Positions 2,871 to 53,771 of a stretch of DNA of 64,000 nt are shown one piece after another. The first letter of the stretch is position 1, and the number at the start of each line of letters is the position of its first letter. The position numbers and the translations under genes are program-made. The notes beneath the pieces are model-generated. The model was given only the letters and a program-made list of their open reading frames with translations. It was not told where the DNA came from and ran no database searches. The stretch comes from Candidatus Daviesbacteria bacterium (GTDB lineage: Bacteria; Patescibacteriota; Microgenomatia; Daviesbacterales; UBA10151): the NCBI GenBank assembly GCA_016176415.1, contig JACOXH010000010.1, forward strand, positions 4,247 through 68,246. The letters are read 5' to 3'.

Positions 2871-2926
2871 TTGTCATTCCGAGCAGAGCGAGGAATCTCC
2901 CAATTTATTTGGGACAGAAAGAAAAT

Positions 2927-16915: not shown

Positions 16916-17035
16916 TTGTCATTCTGAACGAAGTGAAGAATCTCTGAACTTGTTTCAGTTCCCACTCGCATTCGCGAGAGATCCTTCGGCTAAAGAGCGA
17001 AGCTCGCAAGCTTGCTTATCGCCTCAGGATGACAA
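16916..17035. mobile_element. Full-length 120-bp MITE-like palindromic element (family A) filling the groES-groEL spacer
   Basis: Left end TTGTCATTCTGAACGAAGTGAAGAATCTC. Internal mini-hairpins GAACTtgtttCAGTT and CTCGCattcGCGAG. Right end AGATCCTTCGG...CGCCTCAGGATGACAA. The two ends are imperfect inverted repeats (GTCATYCYGA...GRATCTC). The same architecture occurs at 33897-34040 and 40352-40441. Confidence 0.6.
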
Positions 17036-17042
17036 TGGAGGG

Positions 17043-17407: not shown

Positions 17408-18292
17408 CTACTTGTCAAGAGTTGCTAGTTTCAGCCTTTGGCGGTATTCGCTTAAGACTTTTTCTCTGCAATCATTGGGATGGAAATATAAAGCGCCTTC
17501 TTCTATCCGTTCCATCCCTTGTGGTTTTCGCATAATTTTTAATTGAAACCATTTGGCTAAATTTTCTATTAAATCAAAACTTTTGAATTTTGAATTGTAT
17601 TTTTGACTTTTGACTTTTGACTTTTGACTTTGACAACTTATCCAATTAGGCAGATACTTAAATACCCATTCATTATCAGCAAGATACCTTGAATAAACTC
17701 CGTCTCTTTGCCATAAAGGTCTCATTTGTAAAACCTCGTGAGCAACAAAAATATCTTTATTCTTTTGTTCCAATCTATCTTCTTCCAGTAAAATATTAAG
17801 GCATAACTTTCCTGCAATTCCTCTGCCTTTATCAATTCTTTTTCTTCTTTGTGAAACCAGAGACAACAACCCTATTACCAATAGTCTGCTTATCCAAAGC
17901 CTGTTTTTACCCGTTATAATAAACAGATCTATATCATCACTTTTACCTGCATTATTCATAGCCAACCCTCCTGAAACTCCCACCAGTTTAATCCAGGGGA
18001 CAACTTTTAAAATATAAGAGAGCATTTTTGCTTTTTGAAAATAAGCTTCTGATTGTTTTTCTGCCCTTTTTCTTCTTGCAACCAACCCGTTTTGATTCTT
18101 CAGAAAAAAATATCTCCCCTGACTCTTGATTCTTGACTCTTGACTCTGAATTGCTTTCTCTATCTGCCTTAGCGTGCTCCTTTTTCCTACCAACCACTTA
18201 TGAATCTCGTTAATTTTTAAAGGGTAATTAAAAATACCCGCATAGATTAGAGTTTTTAATATAGCTTTTTCCATAATCGTATATAATATCAA
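17408..18292 (-). CDS. Nucleotidyltransferase-fold protein, function unknown
   Basis: GVSGGLAMNNAGKSDDIDLFIIT matches the G[SG]...DxD pol-beta-like NTase motif. It carries two repeat-encoded low-complexity patches (SQESRIKSQG and SQKSKVKSQKYNSKFKSF). Confidence 0.55.
   Translation of the reverse strand: MILYTIMEKAILKTLIYAGIFNYPLKINEIHKWLVGKRSTLRQIEKAIQSQESRIKSQGRYFFLKNQNGLVARRKRAEKQSEAYFQKAKMLSYILKVVPWIKLVGVSGGLAMNNAGKSDDIDLFIITGKNRLWISRLLVIGLLSLVSQRRKRIDKGRGIAGKLCLNILLEEDRLEQKNKDIFVAHEVLQMRPLWQRDGVYSRYLADNEWVFKYLPNWISCQSQKSKVKSQKYNSKFKSFDLIENLAKWFQLKIMRKPQGMERIEEGALYFHPNDCREKVLSEYRQRLKLATLDK
17581..17634. repeat. Tandem heptamer run (TTTTGAA x2, then TTTTGAC about x5) inside a CDS
   Basis: Read directly: ttttgaattttgaattgtatttttgacttttgacttttgacttttgactttgac. 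It is translated on the minus strand as SQKSKVKSQKYNSKFKSF. Confidence 0.8.
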
Positions 18293-18294
18293 TC

Positions 18295-19269
18295 GTGCTT
18301 AAATTTCAAGACAGATATCCATTAAAGAACCTAACTACCTTACAGATTGGTGGTCCTGCTAAAAAATTTGTAATAATTTCTTCTGAAAAAGAGCTTATTG
18401 AGGCAATTAAATTTGCCAAGCAACAGAATTTACCATTTTTGATAATTGGCGGTGGTAGTAATTTATTAGTATCTGATGAAGGCTTTGAAGGATTAATTAT
18501 TAAAAATGAGATTACAGGCATATCCACCTTCCAGGAGTCTCCCTCGACTTCGCTCGGGACAAGAAAGCCCACCTGGAAGGTGTCTGTTAAAAGCGGTACT
18601 GTTTTGCAAGATCTTGTAAACTTTGCAGATGAAAAAGGATTATCAGGACTACAGGATTTAGCTGGAATCCCAGGTACTTTAGGAGGAGCTGTATTTGGTA
18701 ATGCCGGAGCTTACGGCCAGACAATTTCAGATCATTTAGTCTCTGTTAAAACTTTAAATATTAACAATTTAGCAATAGAACAATTTAGCAATAACACTTG
18801 TCAGTTTGAATACCGAAGTAGCATCTTCAAAAAGAACCATTATGTTATTCTGGAAGCCACTTTTTTACTTAAGAAAAATGGTGTTGAGTCTTTAAAAGAA
18901 GAATCTAGTAACATCTTAACTAAAAGGGCAGTCAAATATCCTCCAGGTATTAAATGTCCCGGATCTTTTTTCAAAAATCTGGTAGTAGCTGATTTGCCTA
19001 AAGAAGTTTTGAGCAAAATTCCCCCGGAAAAAATTGTTTATGGCAAAGTGCCGGCAGGATCACTTTTGGAAGAAGCAGGAGCCAGAGGAGCAAGTTTAGG
19101 AGGAATAGAAATAGCAGACTATCATGCTAATTTATTTATAAATAAAGGGGAGGGCACTGCCAAAGATTTTTATAATTTAGCCAAAAAATATGCTTTAAAA
19201 GTTAAAGAAAAATTTGTCGTCACCCTTGAGCCCGAAGTTCAGCTAATTAACCTACCTCCACTAAACTAG
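18295..19269 (+). CDS. murB: UDP-N-acetylenolpyruvoylglucosamine reductase
   Basis: GTG start. Motifs LKNLTTLQIGGPAKKFV, LIIGGGSNLLVSDEGF, AGIPGTLGGAVFGNAGAYG and C-terminal EPEVQLI. Confidence 0.9.
   Translation: MLKFQDRYPLKNLTTLQIGGPAKKFVIISSEKELIEAIKFAKQQNLPFLIIGGGSNLLVSDEGFEGLIIKNEITGISTFQESPSTSLGTRKPTWKVSVKSGTVLQDLVNFADEKGLSGLQDLAGIPGTLGGAVFGNAGAYGQTISDHLVSVKTLNINNLAIEQFSNNTCQFEYRSSIFKKNHYVILEATFLLKKNGVESLKEESSNILTKRAVKYPPGIKCPGSFFKNLVVADLPKEVLSKIPPEKIVYGKVPAGSLLEEAGARGASLGGIEIADYHANLFINKGEGTAKDFYNLAKKYALKVKEKFVVTLEPEVQLINLPPLN
18535..18592. repeat. Palindromic element (family C) inside murB
   Basis: A perfect 11-bp inverted repeat, CACCTTCCAGG (18535-18545) and CCTGGAAGGTG (18582-18592), encloses 36 nt. 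The same arms occur in tsaD at 30397-30430 with a 12-nt loop. Confidence 0.75.
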
Positions 19270-19611
19270 ATTGCCACGCCCCCTTGGGGCTCGCAATGAC
19301 GAAAGATGGGTAAGTTGATAAATTTCAAGTGGGATTTCTTCATAAGGATGAGCGGCTTTTACTGCAGCCACTACTGCTTTAACTTTGTTACCCTCACAAA
19401 TTACCTCTATCCTTTCTTCCTCAACTTCTTCTAATTTTCCTACTTCCCCTATTGCTGGTTTTGCTCCCTCCCCAGGGATAAACCTGCCTATTCCTTTAAC
19501 AGAAAAAGAAGCATGAGTATAATTTCCTAAAACCCCTGCACCTGCATCTCCCATAGCCTGCCTGACTTTACCAGCATCCTGTATTGGCACAAAAGTGATT
19601 ATTTTAAACAT
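19261..19611 (-). CDS. Stand-alone Nif3/YqfO-type PII-like insert-domain protein
   Basis: MFKIITFVPIQDAGKVRQAMGDAGAGVLGNYTHASFSVKGIGRFIPGEGAKPAIGEVGKLEEVEEERIEVI...HPYEEIPLEIYQL matches the conserved insert domain of the Nif3 (YbgI/YqfO) family. The last 13 or so codons are supplied by a repeat fragment. Confidence 0.6.
   Translation of the reverse strand: MFKIITFVPIQDAGKVRQAMGDAGAGVLGNYTHASFSVKGIGRFIPGEGAKPAIGEVGKLEEVEEERIEVICEGNKVKAVVAAVKAAHPYEEIPLEIYQLTHLSSLRAPRGRGNLV
19269..19300 (-). repeat. Family-A-related repeat fragment (GTCATTGCGAGC variant)
   Basis: The minus strand reads GTCATTGCGAGCCCCAAGGGGGCGTGGCAATC. It overlaps the murB stop and forms the C-terminus (SSLRAPRGRGNLV) of the convergent gene. 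Confidence 0.5.
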
Positions 19612-20902: not shown

Positions 20903-20968
20903 GAGATCCTTCGTCGCCAATCGCTCCTCAGGATGACAAAGTGTGTTTGCAAGTATACACACTTTGTC
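20903..20968. repeat. Right-half family-A element plus 12-bp-stem hairpin, abutting a start codon
   Basis: GAGATCCTTCGTCGCCAATCGCTCCTCAGGATGACAA is followed by the hairpin GACAAAGTGTGT-ttgcaagtat-ACACACTTTGTC. The same arrangement occurs at 35191-35250. Confidence 0.65.
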
Positions 20969-23074: not shown

Positions 23075-24000
23075 ATGATTACAGTTACCGGCTCGCTTGC
23101 TTTTGATCATATTATGGATTTCCCAGGGAAATTTGCTGACCACATCATGCCTGATAAAATTCACCAGCTGAATTTGTCATTTTTGGTCAATACTTTAAGC
23201 AAACAAAGAGGGGGAACAGCAGGAAATATTGCCTACAACTTAGCCCTTTTAAAAACCCCTGTTTCAATAGTAGGAGCTGTTGGGGTGGACTTTCTGGATT
23301 ATGCCAAGTTTTTGCAAAGTACAGGTGTTGATATTTCCCAAATTAAAACTATAGAAAAAATTTAACATCTTCTGCTTTTATTATGACTGATAAAGCTGAT
23401 AATCAAATTACTGCCTTTTACCCGGGAGCCATGGATCACGCTGCTGCTTTATCTTTAAACTCCCCTGCTGATTTTGCAGTAATCTCCCCTAATAATCCTC
23501 AGGCTATGGTTAATTTCACCCTTCAGTGCCAAAAAAATAAAATCCCTTACATACTTGATCCGGGAATGCAGCTGCCTGCATTATCTCCTGAAGATCTGCA
23601 AAATATGATCAAAGGGGCCGAGATTCTAATTGGCAATGATTATGAAATGGAATTATTAAGTACTAAGATCCAAGTACCAAGTACCAAATTATTGGAGGAA
23701 GTAAAAATTTTAATTACCACCTTGGGAGAAAAAGGCTCGATCATTCAAACTAAAGAGCAAACTCTGCAAATCAATGCCGGTAAAGTTATCCAAGCTGTTG
23801 ATCCTACAGGAGCAGGAGATGCTTACAGGGCAGGTTTTTTGGCAGGCTACAGTAAAAATATGGATTTAAAAATCTGCGGGCAAATGGGTTCTGTTGCTGC
23901 TTGTTATGCAGTAGAAATTTATGGTACAACTAATCACACTTTTGATTTACAACAATTTAAACAAAGGTACAAAGATAATTTTGGAGAGGAACTGAATTTA

Positions 24001-24015
<15 letters not shown>
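23075..24015 (+). pseudogene. PfkB-family (adenosine/ribo-kinase-like) kinase, interrupted by a frameshift at an A7 run
   Basis: ORF 23075-23365 holds the N-terminal third (GGTAGNIAYNLALL). ORF 23383-24015 holds the rest (DPTGAGDAYRAGFLAGY) in the -1 frame. That second frame is already open from 23347 (NYRKNLTSSAFIMTDKADNQITAFYPGA). The frames meet at gaaaaaa (23354-23360). Confidence 0.7.
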
Positions 24016-25665
<1,650 letters not shown>

Positions 25666-25903: not shown

Positions 25904-27715
25904 ATGCTCCAAACAAAAGAAGCCAAACATTATCAGCTTGCTTCGAAACCAGACAATAAAGCTACCCTTACTCCGAATACCGCTTCCCGAGTTTGCGCCT
26001 ATTTTTGTATGGAATATGGTGTTGGACCAGAATTGCCAATTTATTCCGGAGGCTTAGGAATTTTAGCTGGTGACCATTTAAAAGCTGCAAGTGATTTGGG
26101 AATCCCTTTAGTAGGAGTAGGACTTTTTTACCATCACGGTTATTTCAGACAGGAAATCAATCCTGACGGCTGGCAAATAGAAAAATATCCGCTGGTAGAT
26201 CCGGAGACTGGAGGTCTTCAAACATTAGTAAATGCTCAAAATAAACCTGTTTCAGTTGCTGTGGATATTGAAGACAGAGCTGTTAACATCCAGGCTCACT
26301 TAAAACAAGTTGGCACAGTTCCCTTAATTCTTCTGACAACCAATGTAGAAAGTAACTGTCCCGAAGACCAAATGATTACTGCTCACTTATACGGAGCAGC
26401 ATACAAAGGAGACACGCAAACCAGAATCAGACAGGAGATGGTTTTAGGTATGGGCGGCAAGAAAATGTTAGACAAACTGGGCTTTAGCGTAGGAGTGTAT
26501 CACATGAATGAAGGGCACTCTGCTTTTTTGACCATTGCCAGAGTTGAAGAGTTAGTTAGGGAAGGTATGCATGTAGAAGAAGCCTTGCTGCGGGTGCGCG
26601 CTAATCAAATTTTCACCAACCACACACCGGTACCTGCAGGTAACGATATATTTGAGCAAGGCGTACTAAAACAAGAGCTCAAACCTGTTATATTTACACT
26701 GGGCCAGGGATTTGCTGCACTTCAGGAAAAAGCAAATCATATTCCTGATGCACCCCGGGGCACTTGGTCTCAGGCAAGGTTTGCCCTGTCAAATTCCGCA
26801 AACACTAATGCCGTCAGCAGACTCCATGCAGAAACAATGGCCAAAGCCTGGGGTCAGGACAAGGTGGATTATGTAACCAACGGCGTGCATCACAGTTGGA
26901 TGGATGAAGATATCAAACAAATGATTGATCCTGATCAGAAAAGGTTTGTTAAAAACCATATAGATCCTGATTATTTAAAAGAAAGGATGACAGATATTGA
27001 TTTAGGACAATTCCGGCATCTACGGGGAAGAAAACGTCTGACATTAGTTAATTTTGCCCATGAGTATAGCGAAAAACCTTATTTTGACCCTGAAGTATTA
27101 ACTGTAGGCTTTGCCAGACGCGCAGCCACCTACAAAAGACTGGACTTACTTTCTACAGATCCTGACCGCCTACTTAAGCTTATTACTGATCCGGACTATC
27201 CTGTTCAAATCATCATGGCCGCCAAAGCCCACCCTCAAGACGAGGATGGAAAAGAAGTCATTCAAAGAATGGTTCGCCTTGGACGCGATCCTAAATTTAA
27301 GCGCAATGTCCTTTTTATTCCTGATTACGATAGCCGCATAGCCAAAACTTTGGTTACAGGTTCAGATGTCTGGATGAATGTACCTATGAAACCACAAGAG
27401 GCTTCAGCAACCAGCGGAATGAAAAGCGGAATTAACGGAGGAAGACAATGGTCTGTTGACGATGGCTGGATGAATGAGGTGCCTGACAGATATTATTTTA
27501 AGATTGAAGACGATTTAAATCCCGGTGTGGTAGCAACCAGAATGTATGATATGCTTGGGAACATAATTGCTCCACAATTTTATAGCTCAAAAGGTCAGTC
27601 TGATGGATGGTTAAGACAAACACTGGCTTCTATGGAATATATTATTAGTCATTTTAGCGCTCAAAGAATGGTACAAGGATATAACACAAGATTCTATCAG
27701 CCCTTAATGAGATAA
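25904..27715 (+). CDS. glgP: Alpha-glucan (glycogen/maltodextrin) phosphorylase, GT35 short family
   Basis: AYFCMEYGV, YSGGLGILAGDHLKAASDLGIPLVGVGLFY, and the PLP-lysine region EASATSGMKSGINGG. A candidate promoter is TTGACA (25859-25864), 17-nt spacer, CATACT (25882-25887). Confidence 0.88.
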   Translation: MLQTKEAKHYQLASKPDNKATLTPNTASRVCAYFCMEYGVGPELPIYSGGLGILAGDHLKAASDLGIPLVGVGLFYHHGYFRQEINPDGWQIEKYPLVDPETGGLQTLVNAQNKPVSVAVDIEDRAVNIQAHLKQVGTVPLILLTTNVESNCPEDQMITAHLYGAAYKGDTQTRIRQEMVLGMGGKKMLDKLGFSVGVYHMNEGHSAFLTIARVEELVREGMHVEEALLRVRANQIFTNHTPVPAGNDIFEQGVLKQELKPVIFTLGQGFAALQEKANHIPDAPRGTWSQARFALSNSANTNAVSRLHAETMAKAWGQDKVDYVTNGVHHSWMDEDIKQMIDPDQKRFVKNHIDPDYLKERMTDIDLGQFRHLRGRKRLTLVNFAHEYSEKPYFDPEVLTVGFARRAATYKRLDLLSTDPDRLLKLITDPDYPVQIIMAAKAHPQDEDGKEVIQRMVRLGRDPKFKRNVLFIPDYDSRIAKTLVTGSDVWMNVPMKPQEASATSGMKSGINGGRQWSVDDGWMNEVPDRYYFKIEDDLNPGVVATRMYDMLGNIIAPQFYSSKGQSDGWLRQTLASMEYIISHFSAQRMVQGYNTRFYQPLMR

Positions 27716-29981: not shown

Positions 29982-31054
29982 TAATTTTGGGAATAGAGAC
30001 TAGTTGTGATGAAACGGCAGCTGCAGTGCTGCAAAAGACTGGAAAACAGATAAAAATTTTATCCAATGTAGTAGCTTCTTCTGCAACACTTCAGGCAAAG
30101 TATGGAGGTGTGATCCCCGAACAGGCTGCCAGAGAACAATTGCGGTCGATAATACCAGTTATCCAGGAAGCATTGACTTCAGCTTTTAAATCTACTTCTA
30201 GTTCAAAAATTTCTAATTTCAAATTTCAAATTTCTAAAATTGATGCTATCGCTGTAACTTATGGCCCGGGGCTGATTGGTTCGCTATTGGTAGGAGTAGA
30301 GACTGCCAAAACCTTAGCCCTAACTTGGAACAAACCACTTATTCCTGTAAATCACCTGCTTGGCCATTTTTATGCAAATTGGATTACCAGTACTCACCTT
30401 CCAGGAGCCCAAGCCCACCTGGAAGGTGTTCCAAAGTTTCCCTGCATTGGCCTGCTTGTTTCAGGAGGTCATACTGATTTAGTTTTATTTGAAGATTATA
30501 ATAAATACAAATACTTAGGTGGCACCAGAGATGATGCAGCAGGAGAATGTTTTGATAAATGCGCCAGACTGCTGGGTCTTCCTTACCCCGGAGGGCCGCA
30601 AATTGCCAAACTGGCCCAAACAGGTAATCCTGATAAATTTATCCTTCCCATACCTATGAGGGAAAGTAAAGATTTTGATTTTTCTTATTCAGGTTTAAAA
30701 ACAGCAGTGGCTAATTTAATCAAAGAAACGGGCAAATTGTCTCAACAGGAAAAAGCAGATTTAGCCTCCTCAATAGAACAAACTATTGTTACTTCTTTAA
30801 TTGATAAGGTTGTTTTGGCAATCCAACATTATAATATTGATCAAATAATGGTTGCAGGAGGAGTTGCAGCAAATCAGAGACTCAAAGAGGAACTAGAGTC
30901 AAGGGTCAAGAGTCAAGGGAAAAAGATCAAATTGCACATTCCGCCGCCTGAACTTTGTACTGATAACGCTGCCATGATTGCCTCTGCTGCCTTTTTCCTG
31001 AATCCAATCAAAAACCCTGTGATTCTCCAAGCAAATCCAAATCTGTCCCTGTGA
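29978..31054 (+). CDS. tsaD: tRNA N6-adenosine threonylcarbamoyltransferase
   Basis: ILGIETSCDETAAAV, NHLLGHF, LLVSGGHT, GGVAANQRL and CTDNAAMIA. It carries repeat-derived insertions (see findings). Confidence 0.92.
   Translation: MIILGIETSCDETAAAVLQKTGKQIKILSNVVASSATLQAKYGGVIPEQAAREQLRSIIPVIQEALTSAFKSTSSSKISNFKFQISKIDAIAVTYGPGLIGSLLVGVETAKTLALTWNKPLIPVNHLLGHFYANWITSTHLPGAQAHLEGVPKFPCIGLLVSGGHTDLVLFEDYNKYKYLGGTRDDAAGECFDKCARLLGLPYPGGPQIAKLAQTGNPDKFILPIPMRESKDFDFSYSGLKTAVANLIKETGKLSQQEKADLASSIEQTIVTSLIDKVVLAIQHYNIDQIMVAGGVAANQRLKEELESRVKSQGKKIKLHIPPPELCTDNAAMIASAAFFLNPIKNPVILQANPNLSL
30397..30430. repeat. Palindromic element (family C) inside tsaD
   Basis: CACCTTCCAGG-agcccaagccca-CCTGGAAGGTG. 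It is translated as HLPGAQAHLEGV. Confidence 0.75.
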
Positions 31055-31931: not shown

Positions 31932-32139
31932 CTCTAAACTTAAATCCTTCCACTTAATATGCATTCTCCTGAAAAACAACCACAGTCATGGCTGGAAGAA
32001 ATAGGCACTATAATTGAACTTTGCATCGCTTACTCTTATACTTAAGCCTATGGATAAAGTGTATGATCAAACAAAAGTAAGAACCCTGCTTCGCCAAGTC
32101 TGACTTGGCTTCGCAGGAACCTTGCCTTTTTTGATAATT

Positions 32140-34350
32140 ATGGATAAGATTTATAATCAAAAAAACATAGAACCTAAATGGTACAAAATTTGGGAAGATG
32201 CAGGTTATTTTAAGCCTGAAGTGAACCCAAATGGTAAACCATATACCATTATCCTTCCCCCGCCCAATGCCAACGCCCCGCTCCACTTCGGCCATGCCAT
32301 GTATGTAATTGAAGATATTTTAATCAGGTACCACCGAATGTTGGGTGATGCGGCTTTATGGCTCCCCGGCTCTGATCATGCCGGTTTTGAGACCCAGGTA
32401 GTGTTTGAAAAACACCTGGAGAAAGAAGGGAAATCCCGTTTTGATTTTGACAGAGCTACCCTATACCAGATGATTTGGGATTTTGTGCAAAACAATAAAG
32501 GCACCATGGAAGGACAGGTACGGAGATTAGGTTTTTCAGTCGATTGGTCCAGGGAAAAGTTTACCCTTGATCCTGATATTATAAAAATTGTTTATAAAAC
32601 CTTTAAAAAATTATTTGATGATGGTTTGGCTTACCGTGGGTTAAGACTGGTTAATTACTGCACAAAACACGGCACCAGCTTCTCTGAATTGGAAGTTCTA
32701 TACGAAGACAGAACTACCCCTCTTTATTATATAAAATACGGTCCCCTTACTTTGGCAACTACCAGACTGGAAACAAAGTTTGGCGATACTGCTGTAGCAG
32801 TTCACCCTGACGATAAACGCTACCAAAAATATGTAGGGCAAACTTTGGACATTGAAACAGTTTTAGGATCTGCCAAAATTAAGGTTATTGCTGATGAGGC
32901 TGTTGATCCTGAATTTGGAACAGGGGTTATTAAAGTTACTCCTGCTCATTCAATGGTTGATTTCGAGATCGGACAGCGGCATAATCTGGAAATTAAACAG
33001 GTGATCGGATTTGATGGCAGATTAAATGAGAAAACAGGCAAATTTGCCGGCATGCGGGTCAAAGAAGCCAGAGCTGCTATTGCCAAAGAAATGCAGGAGA
33101 AAGGTCTTATTGAAAAAGTTGACGAAAATTACAAAAACAGGGTGGGAGTTTGTTATAAATGCGGCACAGAAATTGAACCTTTACCAATGGAGCAGTGGTT
33201 TATCAAAGTTGCACCCCTTGCCAAAAAAGCCATTGAGGTAGTTAATAATAATGAAATCAAAATTTACCCAAAAAACTGGGAAGGGCCTTATCTGCATTGG
33301 CTGGAGAAGCTAAAAGACTGGAATATTTCCAGACAAATTGTCTGGGGCATGCAAATCCCTGCCTGGAGAAATATCAAAACAGGAGAGTGGATTGTAACTG
33401 AAGGCCATGGTCCTGAGGGTAAGGATTGGGAACGTGATCCTGATGTGTTTGATACATGGTTTTCCTCCGGCCAGTGGCCCTTCGCTACGCTCAGGGCAAG
33501 CCGTCAGGGTGACTTTGAAAAGTTTTATCCCACTTCTGTTATGGAAACCATGTATGATATTTTGCCTTTTTGGGTCGTCAGAATGGTCATGCTGGGAATT
33601 TACGAAACAGGCCAAATCCCTTTTAAGGATGTTGTTCTGCATGGAAAAGTATTAGATCCTCTGGGTAAGAAAATGAGCAAATCAAAGGGCAATGTGGTGG
33701 ATCCAATGGAAATTGCTGACCAATATGGAGCTGATGCCACCCGAATGGCTTTGGTGTATGGTACAGCGTTTGGACACGATCAGGCCTTATCTCACCCTAA
33801 ACTTCAGGCCATGAGAAACTTTACCAACAAACTTTGGAACATTGGCAGGTTTATTATTGATTTCGCACTAGAAGATGCAAAACATCTGGATAACGATGTC
33901 ATTCTGAACGAAGTGAAGAATCTCTCGCGCGACACTTCGAAGAAGTTAGTCCCCTTGTGGAGAATGCGAGAATCTGAAATGAATGTTGCAAAGCAACTAC
34001 TTCGTAGAACAGAGATCCTTCGTTTCACTCAGGATGACAAGAGTATTCTGAAGAAATTATCCCAAACTGCCCAAACAGTCTCCAAATCCATAGATCAATA
34101 CAGATTCCATGATGCTGCTGATTCTCTATATGAGTTTATCTGGCACGAGTTTGCTGATAAATATATTGAATCAAGCAAAGACAGAAGAGCTGAGGCTCAG
34201 CCTGTTTTGGAGTATGTTTTCAGAACATCTTTGGAGCTTTTACACCCATTCATGCCTTTTATAACTGAAGAACTTTGGCAAAAACTGCCTCACAAAGGGG
34301 ATTCAATCATGATTACAAAGTGGCCCGAGCCTGAAATTAACGCAAATTAA
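32140..34350 (+). CDS. valS: Valyl-tRNA synthetase (short form, no C-terminal coiled coil)
   Basis: ILPPPNANAPLHFGHA (HIGH), a CP1/editing region, DTWFSSGQWPF and KMSKSKGN. ATG at 32140. It contains a 144-bp in-frame repeat element. Confidence 0.9.
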   Translation: MDKIYNQKNIEPKWYKIWEDAGYFKPEVNPNGKPYTIILPPPNANAPLHFGHAMYVIEDILIRYHRMLGDAALWLPGSDHAGFETQVVFEKHLEKEGKSRFDFDRATLYQMIWDFVQNNKGTMEGQVRRLGFSVDWSREKFTLDPDIIKIVYKTFKKLFDDGLAYRGLRLVNYCTKHGTSFSELEVLYEDRTTPLYYIKYGPLTLATTRLETKFGDTAVAVHPDDKRYQKYVGQTLDIETVLGSAKIKVIADEAVDPEFGTGVIKVTPAHSMVDFEIGQRHNLEIKQVIGFDGRLNEKTGKFAGMRVKEARAAIAKEMQEKGLIEKVDENYKNRVGVCYKCGTEIEPLPMEQWFIKVAPLAKKAIEVVNNNEIKIYPKNWEGPYLHWLEKLKDWNISRQIVWGMQIPAWRNIKTGEWIVTEGHGPEGKDWERDPDVFDTWFSSGQWPFATLRASRQGDFEKFYPTSVMETMYDILPFWVVRMVMLGIYETGQIPFKDVVLHGKVLDPLGKKMSKSKGNVVDPMEIADQYGADATRMALVYGTAFGHDQALSHPKLQAMRNFTNKLWNIGRFIIDFALEDAKHLDNDVILNEVKNLSRDTSKKLVPLWRMRESEMNVAKQLLRRTEILRFTQDDKSILKKLSQTAQTVSKSIDQYRFHDAADSLYEFIWHEFADKYIESSKDRRAEAQPVLEYVFRTSLELLHPFMPFITEELWQKLPHKGDSIMITKWPEPEINAN
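33897..34040. mobile_element. Full-length 144-bp family-A MITE-like element inserted in frame in valS
   Basis: TGTCATTCTGAACGAAGTGAAGAATCTC...AGAGATCCTTCGTTTCACTCAGGATGACAA. The 144 bp equal 48 codons, translated as [16 protein letters not shown]...RRTEILRFTQDDK. The left 28 nt are identical to the element at 16917-16944. Confidence 0.65.
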
Positions 34351-35185: not shown

Positions 35186-35190
35186 AATAT

Positions 35191-35250
35191 AGATCCTTCG
35201 CTAGTCACTCAGGATGACACTTTGCATTTTAGATTGTACGCAAAGTGTCA
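35191..35250. repeat. Right-half family-A element plus hairpin, abutting the rplY start
   Basis: AGATCCTTCGCTAGTCACTCAGGATGACA is followed by the hairpin TGACACTTTGC-attttagattgtac-GCAAAGTGTCA. Confidence 0.65.
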
Positions 35251-39788: not shown

Positions 39789-41060
39789 CTAGTTGTGGGA
39801 CTTAGAAGAAAGAGCTGAGAAAGAAAGCCCCCATACCAAAAACAGTAGTCTGTAACCCTGAGGCAGGGTTAAAAAGTAATGATCAAATAATCCTAGGAAA
39901 ATAATAACTACCCAAATCAGAAAGTTTTTACTTTTGATCATTGGATAAAAAATAAAAGCAATTAATCCTAAAAAGCCAATTATCCCTGTTTCAGCCAAAG
40001 TCAGCAGGAAGATATTGTGAACCGGCTGTAAAAACCTGGACGGACCTGTTATCAAATTATTTGCCAGAGCCGGAATAAAATTATTCAGCCCTACACCAAA
40101 AAAAGGACTTTTAAACAATAGTTGCAAAGCTGCCTCTGATAACTGCTCGCGTCTTATTAAAGATAAATTATCAAAGCTGAAAAGGCTGGAAAATCTGGTA
40201 TATATAAAGGGGGAGACAGCAAGTAATAAAACTCCTGCCAAAATCAGCCATTTCCTTTTAAGTAAAAAGGGTAAGAGCAATAAAGAGACAGCAATTGCAG
40301 TCCTGGACATGGTTAAAAAGATCGTTAACCCAGCCACAACATTAACTACTATTGTCATTCCGAGCGGAGCGGGGAATCTCCCAACTTGTTTGGGACCCGC
40401 ATTTGCGGGAGATCCTTCGGCTAATCGCCTCAGGATGACAACCACCACCAGTAAATATCCTGCCAATACATTAGGATGAGGAAAAGTAGCATATGGTCTT
40501 AAAAACTCTATTCCATAAAAATCAAATTTGGCAATAGCAGGCGTTGTAATAGTAAACGTTCTTTCTCCTAAAATCCAAAGCCCTAAAGTTGCGCCTTTTA
40601 TAAATTGGGCTATGGCAATAGCTGATTCGCCTGCTATCCCCAAAACAAGAGGCCAATATAACTTTGAACTTTGCACTTTATTCTGCCAGAGGCAGTTTGA
40701 AAAACACTTTGAACTTGCCAGATATACCCCAAATAAACCTGCTACTGAAAACTGTTCAAATCTAACCAACCCTGCTCCTAAATTTTGCGCTCCTACTAAA
40801 GATATAAATTGGGTTAACATAAAAAGCATCCACAAATTTAAGGACCAGCTGTTAATTTTTGCTTTTTGCAAAATCCATACCAAAATGAGTCCCACTACCA
40901 AAAGATCCCAAAAATAAACAGTAGGGGACAAATAATCTACTTTTAATGAATAAATATAAGAAAAAGAGGGCCAGAAATGTTTGCCTAACTGCGTGGGTAA
41001 AAAAAGCAGTGTTAAAAAAAGAAGAAAATGTTCAGCTTTCTGGAGCATCCTGCTCTTCAT
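39789..41060 (-). CDS. O-antigen ligase/polymerase-like (Wzy_C) membrane protein
   Basis: Polytopic, with a periplasmic-loop region (TMSRTAIAV...) typical of Wzy_C proteins. It contains a 90-bp in-frame repeat element. The start (41060 or 41048) overlaps the jag 3' end. Confidence 0.6.
   Translation of the reverse strand: MKSRMLQKAEHFLLFLTLLFLPTQLGKHFWPSFSYIYSLKVDYLSPTVYFWDLLVVGLILVWILQKAKINSWSLNLWMLFMLTQFISLVGAQNLGAGLVRFEQFSVAGLFGVYLASSKCFSNCLWQNKVQSSKLYWPLVLGIAGESAIAIAQFIKGATLGLWILGERTFTITTPAIAKFDFYGIEFLRPYATFPHPNVLAGYLLVVVVILRRLAEGSPANAGPKQVGRFPAPLGMTIVVNVVAGLTIFLTMSRTAIAVSLLLLPFLLKRKWLILAGVLLLAVSPFIYTRFSSLFSFDNLSLIRREQLSEAALQLLFKSPFFGVGLNNFIPALANNLITGPSRFLQPVHNIFLLTLAETGIIGFLGLIAFIFYPMIKSKNFLIWVVIIFLGLFDHYFLTLPQGYRLLFLVWGLSFSALSSKSHN
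40352..40441. mobile_element. Full-length 90-bp family-A element in frame inside the O-antigen-ligase-like gene
   Basis: TTGTCATTCCGAGCGGAGCGGGGAATCTC-CCAACttgtTTGGG-aCCCGCatttGCGGG-AGATCCTTCGGCTAATCGCCTCAGGATGACAA. The 90 bp equal 30 codons, read on the minus strand as ILRRLAEGSPANAGPKQVGRFPAPLGMT. Confidence 0.65.
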
Positions 41061-41550
41061 TCTTGACTCTTGACTCTAGACTCTTGACTCTAATTACAAT
41101 ATGCCTGTCTCTGCCTTCTCCTGCACTTTCACTTTCCAACCCTGGCATTTCAGAAATGACCATGTGCACAATACGTCTTTGCCATGGTGATTGAGGTTCA
41201 AGCTCCATAGGTTTTCCGGTTTCCAAAACTTGTTCACCCCATGCTTTTGCGCTCTTTTCCAAATCCTGCTCCTTTTGTTTCCTCCAATTCTCCACATCAA
41301 TTATTACCCTTTTAAATCCCTCTGATTCGCTCGGGACGGTTGCCCTCTCTCCAATCTTTTTAGCCACCATTTGATTAACTAAAAGCTGTAAAGAATCCAG
41401 AGATTCACCTCTTGCTCCAATTAGCCTGCCCGCATCACCGGTCTCTATTGACACAAGAAAGCTTTCATCGCTTTCTTCTATTTCATAACTGCCCTCCAAA
41501 AGCAACATCCCGAGCAAATTATCTAATATTTCACTAAGTTGATTTTCCAT
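41032..41550 (-). CDS. jag: Jag/KhpB RNA-binding protein (KH + R3H)
   Basis: KH-like GARGESLDSLQLLVNQM and R3H QRRIVHMVISEMPGLESES.GEG.DRHIVI. The C-terminal tail SLESRVKNEE is encoded by family-B heptamer repeats (41059-41092). Confidence 0.85.
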   Translation of the reverse strand: MENQLSEILDNLLGMLLLEGSYEIEESDESFLVSIETGDAGRLIGARGESLDSLQLLVNQMVAKKIGERATVPSESEGFKRVIIDVENWRKQKEQDLEKSAKAWGEQVLETGKPMELEPQSPWQRRIVHMVISEMPGLESESAGEGRDRHIVIRVKSLESRVKNEEQDAPES

Positions 41551-43829: not shown

Positions 43830-44051
43830 ATATAAATTATATCACTAAATTCCAGTAAACTTGATCTAGTTTTTAATAGTTCCTCTATATTGCTAACCAT
43901 ACTCTTGTAGATTAAATTGTGGATAAGTGATTATGACTTATCCACAAAGTCATAATCATCCCAAACTTGATTTGGGATCCATACAATATCTGTATAGATT
44001 CCGGATCGAGTCCGGAATGACAGTGGAAATGAAATCTACCTGCCCCTATAT
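43830..44051. other. oriC-like region upstream of dnaA
   Basis: An AT-rich stretch (43830-43915) is followed by two perfect DnaA boxes in inverted orientation: TGTGGATAA (43918-43926) and TTATCCACA (43938-43946). A family-A half element lies at 43960-44023. Confidence 0.7.
43960..44023 (-). repeat. Left-half family-A element (TGTCATTCCGGA variant) inside the oriC-dnaA spacer
   Basis: The minus strand reads TGTCATTCCGGACTCGATCCGGAATCT-ATACAgatatTGTAT-ggat-CCCAAAtcaagTTTGGG. Confidence 0.55.
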
Positions 44052-47593: not shown

Positions 47594-49867
47594 TTATTGT
47601 TGTAATACTATTGTAATATATTCGTAATGCTTGGTGAACCTGGTTCCGCCGGCAAAAGGATTATCTCCCCATTTAACTCCGCACATTCCTTTTGCATCGT
47701 TAGCAACGTGCATGTTTTGCTCTGAAGTCTGATTGTTTACATAGTAGGCTACGCTGTCAGCAAATTCCTCGTCTGCCCGATTACCGTCATTATCACCGCT
47801 GCCGCAAATTTTATCCGTTGCTCTGGCTGCGTGTTCGGAGTAATAAGTCAGAAAGCCATTATTGTTTTTTGTATCCTGTGCGGCATCCGCTGCTCTGGTT
47901 GCTATAATGCTGCTGTTGTATATCCATCCGGTGGTATTAATTTTGTGAGCCAATTCATGGATAACCAAATATTTGAAGAATGTTTCACCCGTGCCAGTGC
48001 TTAAAGGAATGTCACAGTTGTCAGCATGTGAAATACCAGCAGTAGGTTCAAGCGTAATATTAGAACAGGCTGTATGGATTTTCTCCTGAAATTTGGGAAA
48101 CATCCCTACAGCTTTATTTAAGATTTCAAAAGCCCATTTATACTCATCGTTGGCAAAACCGTTCTTCATTTCAATTCCAAAGCCTGCCATGGCTGTTTGA
48201 TAATTCCCATCAGCAGGAGGAGGTAAGGGACCGGAGGATGCTGTAGCTTGGCAATTTTGGATACTGGTTTGGACATCAGTTGCGTAATTATGCGGACCAG
48301 TGTTGACATCAGGATATAACACATCCCCATAGTAAGTGTTAACTAAGGCAGTAATAGCTTTTGGGTCATTGGTCCAGCTAGGGTCCCATTTGGTTCCATC
48401 ACCATAACCTATATTACTCATTTTCTTTAGAATCCAGCCGGCTCCTATGATGATGTTTGTCCGAGGATCGCAATAGTCTGCTCTTGTTAAAGTAGACACT
48501 GTTTTACCAACCAGTTTAGCTCCCGCGTCTATACAATCATCACAGCTGGCAGGATCCCCTCTTGCAGATGTAGTGCCGGGTGGTTGTATTTGCATAATGC
48601 CCAGTGCGCCTGTGGGGCTTTCAGCGCAGTTGTTTGCATAATTTGCAATCTGGCTGTCTGACATGCCAGACGAAGAAGGTGATTCTACCCTGATAAAAGC
48701 AGCAAATACTGCAGGTGGAATGCTTGATTTTAAAGATGCTTCCTGAATATAGGATAGCAGGGTGCTGCTTTGAAATTTAGCTGCTGAAGGATTCTCCTGA
48801 CCCCTCGTAAACTCGCATTTGCTGATATCAGATGAAAGCGTTGGTGTGCCTGTTGCTGGTGTAGTTGAGCTGGAACTTGGGATTGTCATCATCCCTACTA
48901 ACATCATCGGGACTAATAATCCCAGCAAAGCCAATTTCCATTTGCTCTTGGCTTTCCCAATAAAAGATCCTGCTCTGCCTCCTGTTGCCCTTGCTTTGCC
49001 AAAAAAACCACCCCCGCCTCTGCCAAACCGGCCAAGCCTGTTAAAAATGCTTCCGCTGCCTGCACCCCCACCGCCAAGACCAAAATTGTTAATACCGGAG
49101 ATAATTTTATTTAGTCCCTTATTTGCTCCAATGCCTAACTTTGACCCGATATTTGATCCAAGATTTGAAAATTCTGAGGGAACTTTTATGTTGCGCGCAC
49201 CCCCTATTGAACTGCTTTTAATCGCTTCTCCTCTGGTGTTGACTAATTTTGAAAAATCTCCCGGTTCTCTGACTACCCCGCTGCTGTTGGCAGTTACTAA
49301 CTTTGAAGGATTGCCTGCTTCCTGTATTTGTCCGGTTGAAGTGGTTTTAACAAGCTTGGATGGGTCTCCTGCTTCAGTTACATGTCCACTGCTGTTGGCT
49401 ATAGTTATATCAGGTTTTTCTGCATGGGGGACATTGTGGATAGTCCGGGGGAAAGAAAAACCGGGGGCGCTTCCCCCCGGCATGTTAAAAGGCAAACCTC
49501 CTCCACCAGCTCTGTTTGTTGCAGAAGGCTCTGTTGCTGGTTGGCCAGTTTGTTCTGTTACAGTATAACCTTCTTCTGCAGTAGTTTCCGGCGCGATTTG
49601 CTCAAGTAGCTGAGGATTCCTTCTGTTAAAGTCTTTAGTAAAATATTCTGCAAATTTCTCATTAGTGTCATAAAGAGTGTGATATTGCTTAAAAGCATAT
49701 CTGGCCTGGGGAAAAATATCATCTTCATAGCTGAAGCCTTTAAACCTTGCCTCGTTGGCATACAAAGGCGTGTTTTTGGCCACTATAGCTTGAGCTAAAA
49801 ATGTTTTTGGTAAAGTCAGTCTGGTTGCTACTTTGACTCTGGTTTTTTCTTCGAGTGCAACTGCCAT
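47594..49867 (-). CDS. T4SS-associated cell-wall hydrolase: lytic transglycosylase (SLT) domain plus HExxH metalloprotease-like domain
   Basis: Three repeats of about 18 aa (SSGHVTEAGDPSKLV / STGQIQEAGNPSKLV / SSGVVREPGDFSKLV). A Gly-rich tract and one TM follow (WKLALLGLLVPMMLVGMMTIP). The SLT pattern is FIRVES...GALGIMQIQPPGT, and the C-terminal motif is LVIHELAHKI. Confidence 0.7.
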   Translation of the reverse strand: MAVALEEKTRVKVATRLTLPKTFLAQAIVAKNTPLYANEARFKGFSYEDDIFPQARYAFKQYHTLYDTNEKFAEYFTKDFNRRNPQLLEQIAPETTAEEGYTVTEQTGQPATEPSATNRAGGGGLPFNMPGGSAPGFSFPRTIHNVPHAEKPDITIANSSGHVTEAGDPSKLVKTTSTGQIQEAGNPSKLVTANSSGVVREPGDFSKLVNTRGEAIKSSSIGGARNIKVPSEFSNLGSNIGSKLGIGANKGLNKIISGINNFGLGGGGAGSGSIFNRLGRFGRGGGGFFGKARATGGRAGSFIGKAKSKWKLALLGLLVPMMLVGMMTIPSSSSTTPATGTPTLSSDISKCEFTRGQENPSAAKFQSSTLLSYIQEASLKSSIPPAVFAAFIRVESPSSSGMSDSQIANYANNCAESPTGALGIMQIQPPGTTSARGDPASCDDCIDAGAKLVGKTVSTLTRADYCDPRTNIIIGAGWILKKMSNIGYGDGTKWDPSWTNDPKAITALVNTYYGDVLYPDVNTGPHNYATDVQTSIQNCQATASSGPLPPPADGNYQTAMAGFGIEMKNGFANDEYKWAFEILNKAVGMFPKFQEKIHTACSNITLEPTAGISHADNCDIPLSTGTGETFFKYLVIHELAHKINTTGWIYNSSIIATRAADAAQDTKNNNGFLTYYSEHAARATDKICGSGDNDGNRADEEFADSVAYYVNNQTSEQNMHVANDAKGMCGVKWGDNPFAGGTRFTKHYEYITIVLQQ

Positions 49868-49879
49868 AGATTTAGCCTA

Positions 49880-51643
49880 TCATGATCCTTTTTCTCTTGC
49901 CAGTATTTCTGCCGGGTTTGAAGTAATCAGCTGGTGTTCTTTCCCTGAAGCTACCACCCTCATAGCCACATGGGTTGAACCTGCAAAAAAGATTCCTTCC
50001 CCCATCCCTTCTGACATCAGCAGCCTTTGTTCCCCTTCTGATAAATTAAAAACCCGGGAAAGCAAATCTATTGAAGCAGGAGCTTGTTTTAAAAGTATCT
50101 GAATAGAAGAGTTGGAAATAATTTCTTTGCCCCGCTCGCTGCCCAAAAAGTCTTCCACATCCTGAGTAATGGTGGTTAGCCCCAGATAGTATTTTCTGGC
50201 TCTCTTGGCAATATCAACCAAAAAATCAGCAGAATCCTGGCTTCTCATTAAATACCAGGCCTCATCAACAATTAAAAGTCTTTTTTTCAGCTTGCCTCTG
50301 ATTTTGGTCCAGACATAATCCAAAATCATATGTATTGCCAAAGGACGCAGCTGGTCAGGTAAATCCCGTACAGAAAAGACTGTAAAAGAATTAGATAAAT
50401 CTATATTGGATTGGGAAGAAAAAATACCGGTTAAGGATCCTTTGATAAATCTTTCCAGTCTTGCTGCCAGCTCCATAGCAGGGGCATCCTCCATGCCGAT
50501 TAAAACTTTGTATAAATCTTCCATCAAAGGGGGTTGTTTGTTTTGAGTATTGGGATCATCTGTAATACCTTTAAGCTGGTAAGTTTGTTTTAAGGCTCTG
50601 TCTAAAACAGCAGATTCCTGCGCGTTTAAAGCGCCCAATACTATCCTCAAAAATGAAGTTAAAGACAAAATCTTCCTGCCCAGCTCGTTTTCTCCCGGAA
50701 TTACTTCCCCTGACATATCAAAAGGGTTAATTTTCACCGGCGAAGAAGAGGAAAAATTAATATATTCCCCGCCCACTGCCTGACACAAAGGTAAGTATTC
50801 CTGTTCAGGATCAATGACAATAATTTCTGTACCAAACATTAATGACCTTAGGGCCTCCAGTTTAACCAGATAGCTTTTACCTGCGCCTGATTTGGCAAAA
50901 ATTACAGAGTTGGCATTCTCCATGGAGAATCTGTCAAACAGTATCAAAGAATCATTATGCTCGTTAATCCCGTACATAATGCCTTCATTGGCAGTGAGCT
51001 CTGAAGAGGCAAAAGGAAAAGTGGTAGCTAAAGAAGTGGTATCCATGTTGTGGGTTAAATTCAGGAAGTCCTGCCCTTGTGGCAGGGTAGATTTAAAACC
51101 ATCTTCCATCTGCAGGGTGGTTTGTTTGGCGGTAATAGATAAGGAAGCAAGGGTAGATTCTACCAGCTTTGAGGTGTTGTGTAATTCTTCCGGTGAATCA
51201 GCAGGCACTGTAATGTAAAGAGCAAACTGGAAAAAGCGCTCGACACCTCTGACCAGCTGATCCTGTAAAGCCTGGGCATCCTCTAAAGCTACTGCCACTG
51301 CCGGGTCTACGGGTCTGCCCCGCTCAACGTCTGTCTGAATGGTAGCTTCCATTTCAGCCACTTTCCTTTTTAGCTCGTCTAAAACTCCCTGTGATTGGGA
51401 AGGATAAATAAACATGGAAATTAACAGCGACCGGTCAAAAGAAATTAAAGGCTCCAGCCAATTTGGTTCAACAAAGCGGGGGTAGTTAGAAACAAAATAG
51501 GTCCTGAAAAAGCGTCCGTCAACCCGTAAAAAGTTGAAATCTATCTCCAGCTCTGCCGGAGCCAAAACATCCTCAAGGGTGAGTTGAGGAAGAGTAGGTT
51601 CATTTTGTGTTTTAGTTTTTTTAAATGGGTTAGGTAATTTCAT
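49880..51643 (-). CDS. VirB4/TraE-like T4SS ATPase (C-terminal two-thirds)
   Basis: Walker A FAKSGAGKSYLV and Walker B RLLIVDEAWYLM. The Gram-positive VirB4-type N-region is LRVDGRFFRTYFVSNYPRFVEPNWLEPL. Its start forms an ATGA overlap with the upstream ORF. Confidence 0.85.
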   Translation of the reverse strand: MKLPNPFKKTKTQNEPTLPQLTLEDVLAPAELEIDFNFLRVDGRFFRTYFVSNYPRFVEPNWLEPLISFDRSLLISMFIYPSQSQGVLDELKRKVAEMEATIQTDVERGRPVDPAVAVALEDAQALQDQLVRGVERFFQFALYITVPADSPEELHNTSKLVESTLASLSITAKQTTLQMEDGFKSTLPQGQDFLNLTHNMDTTSLATTFPFASSELTANEGIMYGINEHNDSLILFDRFSMENANSVIFAKSGAGKSYLVKLEALRSLMFGTEIIVIDPEQEYLPLCQAVGGEYINFSSSSPVKINPFDMSGEVIPGENELGRKILSLTSFLRIVLGALNAQESAVLDRALKQTYQLKGITDDPNTQNKQPPLMEDLYKVLIGMEDAPAMELAARLERFIKGSLTGIFSSQSNIDLSNSFTVFSVRDLPDQLRPLAIHMILDYVWTKIRGKLKKRLLIVDEAWYLMRSQDSADFLVDIAKRARKYYLGLTTITQDVEDFLGSERGKEIISNSSIQILLKQAPASIDLLSRVFNLSEGEQRLLMSEGMGEGIFFAGSTHVAMRVVASGKEHQLITSNPAEILAREKGS

Positions 51644-52416
51644 TCTGTCAGTTCCTCTACTACAAACGGGTGGGACCTAGATCGGAATGACTCGGAATTA
51701 CTCAGAGTATCAGATGGCCGGATTTCCGGATTCTCTGGTGTTTTAATAGTCTGATCCTCTGGTCTTCTGAGTTCTTCTGAGTTTTCTGGATTGTTTTTTT
51801 GAACTGGCTGTTTTAATCTGACTAGCAAACCTTTGGGATCAACTGTCTGGCTTATTGGTTTTTGGGAAAATTCACCGTTATAGATGTTATAAAAAGTCTC
51901 TATGAGGTCCTTTTTAACCAGCTGATTTGCTTTAAGTCCCACTCTGGCCAGTTGCCTGATTATTTGGTCTCTTCTGGGAAAGAGCACGGTTTTGACTTTT
52001 TGGCGTAGATTTTCTTTTGAGGCAGTCAACCCTAATTCTATGGCAAAAAGCGGGATAACAATATAGAAATTTTTGTCCAGCACCTCATTTTCTTTAATAG
52101 TGCTTTGTATAAACTGCTTGTATTCACTGATCATATTAGATAAAAGAGGATTAGTTTGGGCTTTTTGGGCTTTCTCCAAAAGAGTTAAATAGGAGTTTAT
52201 ATTAAGTCTTTGCGAGCGGATGACAATTTGCAGGCTAAATGATAGAGAGTTTAACATTTGAGCAAAGGAAGAAATAATGGCTACCTGTTCGCGGTCAGAC
52301 AATAGCCCAAAATTGACAGCATCTACCTCCAGCACTAAAGCTCCTCCCCCGTCTTTAAGCAACAGGATGTCATTATCTATATCTGCAATAGCCAAATGTT
52401 TTTGTGTTGTATACAT
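51640..52416 (-). CDS. Probable detached N-terminal domain of VirB4
   Basis: IADIDNDILLLKDGGGALVLEVDAVNFGLLSDREQVAIISSFAQMLNSLSFSLQIVI follows the pattern I remember for the extreme N-terminus of Gram-positive VirB4 homologues. It ends in a low-complexity module and is translationally coupled to the ATPase ORF. Confidence 0.5.
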   Translation of the reverse strand: MYTTQKHLAIADIDNDILLLKDGGGALVLEVDAVNFGLLSDREQVAIISSFAQMLNSLSFSLQIVIRSQRLNINSYLTLLEKAQKAQTNPLLSNMISEYKQFIQSTIKENEVLDKNFYIVIPLFAIELGLTASKENLRQKVKTVLFPRRDQIIRQLARVGLKANQLVKKDLIETFYNIYNGEFSQKPISQTVDPKGLLVRLKQPVQKNNPENSEELRRPEDQTIKTPENPEIRPSDTLSNSESFRSRSHPFVVEELTE

Positions 52417-52424
52417 GGTTAGTT

Positions 52425-52500
52425 AGAGTCTAGCGACTAGAATCAAGAGTCTAGGAAAGCAAAGACTTGACTCTTGATTCTAGCGACTAGTCACTATTAT
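52425..52500. repeat. Family-B hairpin element (second copy)
   Basis: CTAGAATCAAGAGTC-taggaaagcaaagactt-GACTCTTGATTCTAG forms a 15-bp perfect stem. It is flanked by CTAGCGACTAG on both sides. The 3' 34 bp are identical to 24044-24077. Confidence 0.8.
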
Positions 52501-53621: not shown

Positions 53622-53674
53622 CGTGAAAAAAGTATTGGCAAGCGACACAAAAGAGATCAATTTAATTCTATTCC

Positions 53675-53718
53675 TGTCATTCTGAGGCAAAGCCGAAGAA
53701 TCTCTTGCGGATGCAAGC
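53675..53718 (+). repeat. Left-half family-A element
   Basis: TGTCATTCTGAGGCAAAGCCGAAGAATCTC followed by the mini-hairpin TTGCggatGCAA. Confidence 0.6.
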
Positions 53719-53727
53719 TAATTAAAA

Positions 53728-53755
53728 TTGATAATTGATAATTGAAAATTATGAT
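53728..53755 (+). promoter_or_regulatory. Candidate sigma70-type promoter for the riboswitch-led operon
   Basis: TTGATA (53728-53733), 16-nt spacer, TATGAT (53750-53755). It is embedded in ATTGATA ATTGATA ATTGAAA heptamer repeats. Confidence 0.4.
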
Positions 53756-53771
53756 GTTATCTTAATTTTGT

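Follow-up and report, generated by a model that had tools for sequence, protein, structure and literature searches.

The subject of this analysis is a 144-nt palindromic element (33897-34040, plus strand) lying in frame in valS, the gene of valyl-tRNA synthetase (ValRS), on a 64-kb stretch of DNA from a Candidatus Daviesbacteria bacterium, the whole of which is referred to as the window. Genomes of the candidate phyla radiation (CPR) are thought to be streamlined and repeat-poor, and judged from its sequence the element would be a clean case, in a CPR bacterium of ultra-small size, of selfish palindromic DNA that is read through into the protein chain of an essential enzyme. The closest described systems are the CGTC-tagged repetitive extragenic palindromic (REP) sequences, in which the tag, often changed to TGTC and with CCTC variants allowed, adjoins an 8-9 bp stem that opens with two A-T/T-A pairs and carries a 4-5 nt loop, followed by a short, unpaired tail of consensus CCA (Di Nocera, De Gregorio & Rocco 2013, BMC Genomics 14:522; PMC3733652). 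These sequences occur in spacers as singles, inverted dimers and clusters, with head-to-head dimers predominating, and their intragenic dimers and clusters encode 20-82 amino acids in hosts that include DNA-repair genes and tRNA synthetases (PMC3733652). No dedicated transposase is known for them, and the Rickettsia palindromic elements (RPEs) RPE-4 and RPE-6 have been placed in the same CGTC/TGTC-tagged superfamily (PMC3733652). The in-frame insertion of RPEs has been described as the extreme known case in a review of MITEs (transposable elements that are miniature and have inverted repeats; PMC10969869). For CPR/Patescibacteria, no paper describing such palindromic, REP or MITE elements was found in the literature.

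The 144-nt segment in valS is a clear new example of the phenomenon known from Rickettsia and other bacteria. It is very probably a non-autonomous REP/REPIN-type palindromic repeat, composed of two inverted units of ~28 nt around a variable centre, whose insertion in a linker of the enzyme is tolerated. The Rickettsia-type phenomenon is thereby extended to a distant lineage and tied to one hairpin unit that is near-identical in >10 phyla and in viral contigs. The initial annotation of the element was essentially right, and the parts most worth pursuing are the insertion hot spot in ValRS and the identity of the unit across phyla, both described below.

The element in valS and its host protein

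The element consists of two inverted TGTC-tagged hairpin units, tags outward, around a unique centre of 87 nt. The left unit (33897-33924, plus strand; TGTC-ATTCT-GA-AC-GAA-GT-GA-AGAAT-CTC) matches the covariance model R1, built from 50 distinct units, with 48.2 bits (E 1e-13), and the right unit (34012-34039, minus strand; TGTC-ATCCT-GA-GT-GAA-AC-GA-AGGAT-CTC) with 46 bits (E 7e-13). The imperfect terminal inverted repeats of the initial annotation do exist, but they are longer than had been stated, extending over 28 nt per side (left TGTCATTCTGAACGAAGTGAAGAATCTC; right, as reverse complement, TGTCATCCTGAGTGAAACGAAGGATCTC), and they are independent hairpin units which are also found singly. 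In its left 28-29 nt the element agrees at every position with 16917-16945 of the groES-groEL spacer, a copy which the initial annotation had already pointed out for 28 nt, and no match is expected from shuffled sequences. The 144-nt stretch begins on codon position 3 and the 48 inserted codons, likewise described at the outset as stop-free, occupy 33898-34041. Among the six frames of the element the valS frame is the only open one, and it would be translated as V-I-L-N-E-V-K-N-L ... E-I-L-R-F-T-Q-D-D-K (48 amino acids), the peptide stretches covering the insert being ...HLDNDVILNEVK... and ...FTQDDKSILK.... Two of the three frames of each unit end are without a stop codon and the length of the insert is a multiple of three, which together explain why valS stays open. 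The right edge of the element is uncertain by up to 9 nt, since its final GATGACAAG coincides with conserved host codons for D-D-K. As a whole the element folds into a long hairpin (-46.8 kcal/mol, z score -3.9), and its 87-nt centre has no second copy in the window or in the loci fetched for comparison.

The host gene (32140-34350, plus strand) is identified as valS by its open reading frame (ORF) with a HIGH-like HFGH motif and a KMSKS motif. Its true start is probably the ATG at 32140 (MDKIYNQ...) instead of the TTG at 32122 of the mechanically called ORF, and homologous ValRS proteins begin at the position matching this ATG. The closest database matches are ValRS of Candidatus Daviesbacteria (~80% identity), and the match to the Thermus enzyme 1GAX is strong (E 1e-159). 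The window enzyme has 736 residues compared to 862 in Thermus and is devoid of the C-terminal coiled-coil tail. The gene order tsaD-valS-L25-...-yidC-rnpA-dnaA is shared with two relatives, and places the valS region next to the replication origin. In agreement with the initial annotation, the insert lies between the catalytic core and the anticodon-binding bundle: the Pfam domain tRNA-synt_1 is situated ahead of it, and Anticodon_1 begins at D633, i.e. with the final two residues (D-K) of the insert. The linker between these two domains comprises ~59 residues, as opposed to 16 in Thermus 1GAX.

An AlphaFold2 model of the window ValRS has a mean predicted local distance difference test (pLDDT) score of 89.5 and a template-modelling (TM) score of 0.87 to 1GAX. 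Structure prediction had been suggested as a check on the insert, and over it the model gives a helix-loop-helix (helices 591-601 and 617-631) with a pLDDT of 51-78, set between confident helices. A tolerated excursion at the protein surface would be expected to give such a picture in a model. The REP/REPIN-type copy would accordingly have entered a putatively solvent-exposed linker joining the catalytic core to the anticodon-binding helical bundle, adding a low-confidence helix-loop-helix excursion of ~48 residues, with the rest of ValRS predicted to retain its fold.

It is barely credible that the 144 nt arose through faulty assembly, or that they represent an intervening sequence of the intron, intein or bypass type which is removed before the mature ValRS is formed. 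Repeats can cause mis-assembly, but an independent metagenome-assembled genome (MAG; GCA_964504985.1, locus L001, P0007) shares the two termini and the insertion site with the window, and dozens of other assemblies have analogous inserts. Furthermore, no Rfam intron was matched (Rfam 15 gave no match at E <= 1 for the valS and groE copies, at gathering as well as permissive thresholds), the 144 nt are without intein motifs, and as the frame is open no bypass is needed. An independent Logan contig of the region (L204, 4 kb) breaks off at codon 402 of valS, which lies ~190 codons upstream of the insert, and therefore neither covers nor contradicts it.

Besides the element at 33897-34040, a second candidate in valS was considered at 33479-33495 (minus strand; ..ATLRASRQGD..), where model positions 7-23 of the covariance model give a partial match (E 8e-4). 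It was rejected, since ValRS shows no extra length there relative to Thermus, and is probably a chance match.

Hairpin units and their relation to described repeats

The units follow the layout TGTC, AT-YCY, GA, a 2-3 bp stem with a GNA-type loop, GA, RGR-AT and CTC, so that the stem of the hairpin starts with A-T pairs, is interrupted by a tandem GA/GA internal loop, and is followed by the CTC tail. A loose search for the tag plus any 5-bp stem gave 23 matches in the window compared to 26 in shuffles. As it performed no better than shuffles, a stricter pattern and the covariance model were adopted. The strict pattern identifies 13 units in the 64-kb window (0.02 in shuffles), and confirms that the repeat is dispersed; they are grouped as three dimers with outward tags and seven singles, and five of the 13 are coding, being in frame within three genes (sbcD, valS and a Wzy-type gene). 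The covariance model gives nine matches in the window at E <= 2e-8, plus several weaker ones. The tag is TGTC in 12 of the 13 window units and CGTC in the remaining one, all stems begin AT...AT, most comprise 5 bp, the GA/GA and a further 2-3 bp with a loop of 3-5 nt, and the tail is a triplet (CTC, CTA or CTT).

The hairpin of the unit is supported by covariation. In the 50 distinct 28-nt units, 97.4% of the stem cells are paired and 52 cells carry double changes, compared to 16 in shuffles; the covariation value was reached by none of 500 shuffles, and it collapses when the register is slid. The variable stem bases are also Watson-Crick complementary in 146 of 150 exact-pattern matches from other phyla, although the pattern did not demand pairing. 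Among the matches listed, the exact pattern is found in >10 phyla, with MAGs of Chloroflexota, Acidobacteriota, Bacteroidota, Verrucomicrobiota, Nitrospirota and Firmicutes, further Saccharibacteria, Planctomycetota, Proteobacteria and Gemmatimonadota as well as one Nanoarchaeota, and in >120 viral contigs. In the other phyla the units are often arranged as inverted dimers, and some 28-mers are identical to the valS units. A MurB gene of another phylum (L093, 6377-7562, minus strand) contains the in-frame peptide CHSEALATKNQGPGGLRSFANAQDD, which corresponds to a dimer of a TGTC-type unit.

By their described features (tag, stem, copy number and dimers), rather than by a consensus sequence, the window units fit the CGTC/TGTC-tagged REP superfamily. 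Shared with it are a tag 5' of a short hairpin starting with A-T pairs, the occurrence as singles and inverted dimers, the dispersal and the location of some copies inside ORFs. A 3-nt tail is present as well, but its sequence in the window (CTC, CTA or CTT) differs from the CCA consensus. The stem is, however, continuous in the published REPs, whereas here it is interrupted by the conserved tandem GA/GA. The host is moreover a CPR bacterium (Microgenomates), a group with no genomes among the species named in PMC3733652, and a marked same-site hot spot across many species is seen here. The comparison to RPEs (Ogata et al. 2000; PMC10969869) drawn in the initial annotation is apt: both are palindromes of ~100-150 nt in frame in unrelated housekeeping genes with a fold-compatible peptide, as illustrated by the in-frame copies in valS, sbcD and the Wzy_C gene and by the host fold kept in the ValRS model. 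The RPE families differ in having conserved internal peptides, whereas only the unit ends are conserved here, and they belong to another phylum; the link between the two goes through the equation of RPE-4/RPE-6 with CGTC REPs in PMC3733652 and not through RPE consensus sequences. The phenomenon, seen here in a distant lineage, is less unprecedented than the initial annotation implied, intragenic REPs, some of them in tRNA synthetases, being catalogued in other phyla.

A resemblance is also seen to REPINs, the GTAG-tagged REP doublets mobilised by RAYT, in which two inverted hairpin units make up a larger hairpin, solo remnants occur, target-site duplications are lacking and the repeats persist within a lineage. 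REPINs are almost always extragenic, and RAYT is a single-copy gene flanked by repeats. The units of the window differ in their tag, TGTC instead of GTAG, and no flanking RAYT gene is present in the 64 kb.

The label 'MITE-like' of the initial annotation is a loose one. A classical MITE would be a deletion derivative of an insertion sequence (IS), moved by the DDE transposase of that IS acting on the terminal inverted repeats, and a parent IS would have to share the end sequence TGTCATYCYGAG. Such an origin is highly improbable. The length of ~90-144 nt, the inverted ends and the several copies are compatible with it, but no target-site duplication was found at any of the three full copies (0 of 3), the flanks of which share no direct repeat. 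Nor was any IS, transposase, Y1/HUH gene or other mobilising enzyme seen in the 64-kb window, and the stretches between inverted unit pairs, inspected in 240 loci of other phyla and of viral contigs, yielded nothing beyond PurC, Mdh, MurB, capsid and similar genes. The presumed terminal repeats in addition fold on themselves, occur singly (seven solo units in the window) and stand head-to-head in relatives. Since the stem bases covary, a hairpin rather than duplex ends is presumably what is recognised. Mobility may instead depend on an enzyme acting in trans that, like the RAYT/IS200-type HUH transposases, reads tag and hairpin in single-stranded DNA; the build of the units from a tag and a hairpin, the existence of solo units and the missing target-site duplication suggest this.

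Inserts at the ValRS linker in related genomes

The initial annotation had proposed to look for empty sites in orthologues, and such sites are found at the insert position in a close Daviesbacteria relative (L002, P0009), in many other relatives and in Thermus; the closest relative (P0001) is also without the insert, which is thus lineage-specific. In L001 the site is identical and both termini are present, around a different centre. At the right end of the element, 32 of 32 nt (the right unit plus flank) are identical between L001 and the window, the ValRS proteins being ~78% identical, while the left unit of L001 has three differences, all non-synonymous, which break its hairpin. Linker peptides of the kind that unit ends encode (VIx.., ..RNDN, ..LRMT, ..QDDK) are present in 26 of 119 ValRS homologues (22%). 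A search of 82 related loci, representing 1.01 Mb around valS, gave 18 strict units, nine of which are located in the valS linker, and the covariance model gave 11 matches in the same DNA, 7-8 of them in valS. The unit density of the window genome is ~10 times higher than that in the flanks of its relatives. The ValRS linker is therefore an insertion hot spot across species, a finding that goes beyond the initial annotation. A similar situation is seen in SbcD, as the position used in the sbcD gene of the window is occupied by other inserts of the REP type in many of its homologues and is empty in many more.

At the DNA level the related ValRS inserts differ in stem type, frame (VIx, CHxE, LRMT, QDDK), orientation and exact position. 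The tags point outward in the window, L128 and L134, and inward (GACGTC) in L129 and L183. The possibility that the conserved host sequence GATGACAA (D-D-K) acts as a target mimicking the unit end was considered, and is not a general rule: the inserts of the window, L001 and L126 merge with the host D-D-K, while those of L128, L134 and P0005 end 1-4 codons upstream or in another frame. Further units were noted in individual ValRS genes, namely a dimer in the linker of L166 (11771-11806) in the third frame (CHPEGEKRPKDL..LPQDD), one unit in the linker of L203 (8333-8361; VIASEAKQS), and a unit in the zinc-finger region of L142 (1692-1744; CHSEQARPERSRMGRGISRE), which constitutes a second ValRS site.

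One explanation for this distribution is a single ancient insertion in the ancestor of these Microgenomates, followed by vertical descent, overwriting by gene conversion and repeated loss. The units are indeed homogeneous within a genome, the left units of the valS and groE copies being identical over 29 of 29 nt, and many of the linkers that appear empty resemble decayed single units. These linkers of 21-23 residues, of the type AKHLD..(T/S/E)IP....DD (P0058, P0024, P0014, P0056 and others), are longer by about one unit than those of 13-15 residues (KPEDSxTEISxHxDD) and retain an 'IP' remnant, and part of the native-looking ValRS linker may thus be decayed repeat. However, the differing frames, the insertion points up to several codons apart and the opposite orientations go beyond what conversion alone would give, and Fitch parsimony on a neighbour-joining tree requires 23 changes for the 27 insert carriers. 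An exclusively ancient origin is for this reason rather unlikely.

Another explanation is that the insert is selected, i.e. kept or repeatedly acquired because it is useful, for example as a hairpin in the mRNA at which translation pauses between the two domains or which controls mRNA stability, or, in a further variant, as a linker extension which aids tRNA binding in a ValRS without the C-terminal coiled coil. The concentration of units in valS, mostly within a linker of ~60 nt, the proportion of homologues which carry an insert, the perfect conservation of the right unit and its flank in L001 at the given protein divergence, the stable RNA fold of the whole element and the short ValRS lacking its tail would all agree with selection. 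Against this, the peptides share only what the unit ends encode and vary in frame, orientation and length, most relatives including the closest do without the insert, the left hairpin of L001 is broken, and the same units occur in unrelated genes and spacers. A selected role is in view of this distinctly improbable. The insert peptide would rather be tolerated without a function of its own, since it differs in every lineage and decays, as in L001.

The interpretation as a tolerated REP/REPIN-type insertion nevertheless faces several observations that it does not readily accommodate. Pure tolerance leaves unexplained that 7-8 of the 11 covariance model matches fall within valS and, as spacers are permissive too, tolerance alone is insufficient to account for this concentration, which likely reflects some site preference or the turnover of an old insertion. 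Taken singly, the units form hairpins of low thermodynamic stability when standard DNA parameters are applied, and z scores near 0 were obtained for several of them. The 87-nt centre is unique, and two solo units may have landed separately around unrelated DNA. The tails are CTC/CTA rather than the published CCA, which is found in related ValRS inserts (L129, L138), and the dimers of the window are tail-to-tail with long variable centres whereas the published ones are mostly head-to-head, an arrangement present in the relatives L129 and L183. The transposition step is likewise weakened by the lack of a mobilising enzyme in the window and the 240 loci, and translation of the 48 inserted codons is suggested by the intact frame only.

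Within the same REP/REPIN-type interpretation, the ValRS linker and the SbcD loop may be places at which units repeatedly land or survive in this lineage. A more far-reaching version is possible, though held only tentatively: the TGTC-tagged unit would be pan-bacterial and also present in phage, and in reduced CPR genomes it would not merely survive in housekeeping linkers and loops but prefer to land there, specifically at the ValRS linker, the SbcD loop and a second ValRS loop. If so, the units would be a major and continuing source of length variation in linkers and loops, many native-seeming linker residues, such as those of the 'AKHLD..IP..DD' class, would be decayed units, and one would have to assume an insertion machinery, common to many lineages, that targets sequences or structures in coding DNA. 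The recurrent ValRS and SbcD sites offer a natural data set for asking whether targets are chosen at all and what share of linker diversity stems from such elements. At a practical level, protein lengths are inflated by the inserts, which also give rise to spurious small ORFs (VILSEAK.., ..LRFAQDDK) and can disrupt assemblies.

Further copies and neighbouring features of the window

The two other dimers of the window are sister elements of that in valS. One, of 120 nt (16917-17036, plus strand; units 16917-16944 on the plus and 16978-17034 on the minus strand), fills the groES-groEL spacer. The other, of 89 nt (40353-40441, plus strand), lies inside the ORF of a Wzy_C/O-antigen-ligase-type membrane protein (39789-41060), where its minus strand gives the in-frame peptide VILRRLAEGSPANAGPKQVGRFPAPLGMT. 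The Wzy_C orthologues in the syntenic loci L001 and L002 are shorter at the site and without the element peptide, the alignment at this loop not being crisp. Among the single units, one with an ATTGC stem (2430-2466, minus strand) is in frame inside sbcD (1686-2870) as IATGSSNPRNDN, and a second (2872-2899, plus strand; covariance model E 8e-13) is situated between sbcD and sbcC. The unit with the CGTC tag (19267-19301, minus strand) is found between convergent ORFs and overlaps their stop codons. Two units are located in 5' leaders, one at 20903-20938 (minus strand) and one in the leader of the L25 gene at 35190-35219 (minus strand), with the 3' stem half AAGGAT of each placed 8 nt upstream of the start codon (ATG 20898 and ATG 35185, respectively), and both stop 4-5 nt ahead of it. 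As this Shine-Dalgarno-like AAGGAT is enclosed in the hairpin, the two leader units could have a role in translation control. A unit with a perfect 8-bp stem and a 5-nt loop (43995-44022, minus strand; z score -3.65) lies ~30 nt upstream of dnaA, and the last one (53675-53704, plus strand), recognised by both the strict pattern and the covariance model, lies upstream of a cobalamin riboswitch. This riboswitch (53754-53879, plus strand; RF00174, 42 bits) is the sole Rfam match in the window, and the ORF downstream of it (53911-55425) has no Pfam match. A weak covariance model match (E 0.003) at 26961-26992 (minus strand), within the ORF 25904-27715 (plus strand) and read ..DPDYLKERMT.. in the frame of this gene, could be what is left of an old unit, in which case a fourth gene would be affected.

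A second, unrelated family of intergenic repeats, composed of AGAGTCAAGAG/CTCTTGACTCT motifs, is present at 18113-18162, 23993-24078, 30885-30933, 41053-41106 and 52423-52500; its copies near 24.0 kb and 52.4 kb are inverted repeats of ~80 nt, ~90% identical to each other. The window also contains a type IV secretion/conjugation-like cluster (47594-53690, minus strand) encoding an SLT-domain protein, a TraG/VirB4-type P-loop ATPase and a PrgI-family protein. Finally, a direct repeat of 141 nt (62260-62400 and 62782-62922; 72% identity) is located in two adjacent ORFs for small secreted proteins (62200-62715 and 62761-63312), which are probably tandem paralogues.

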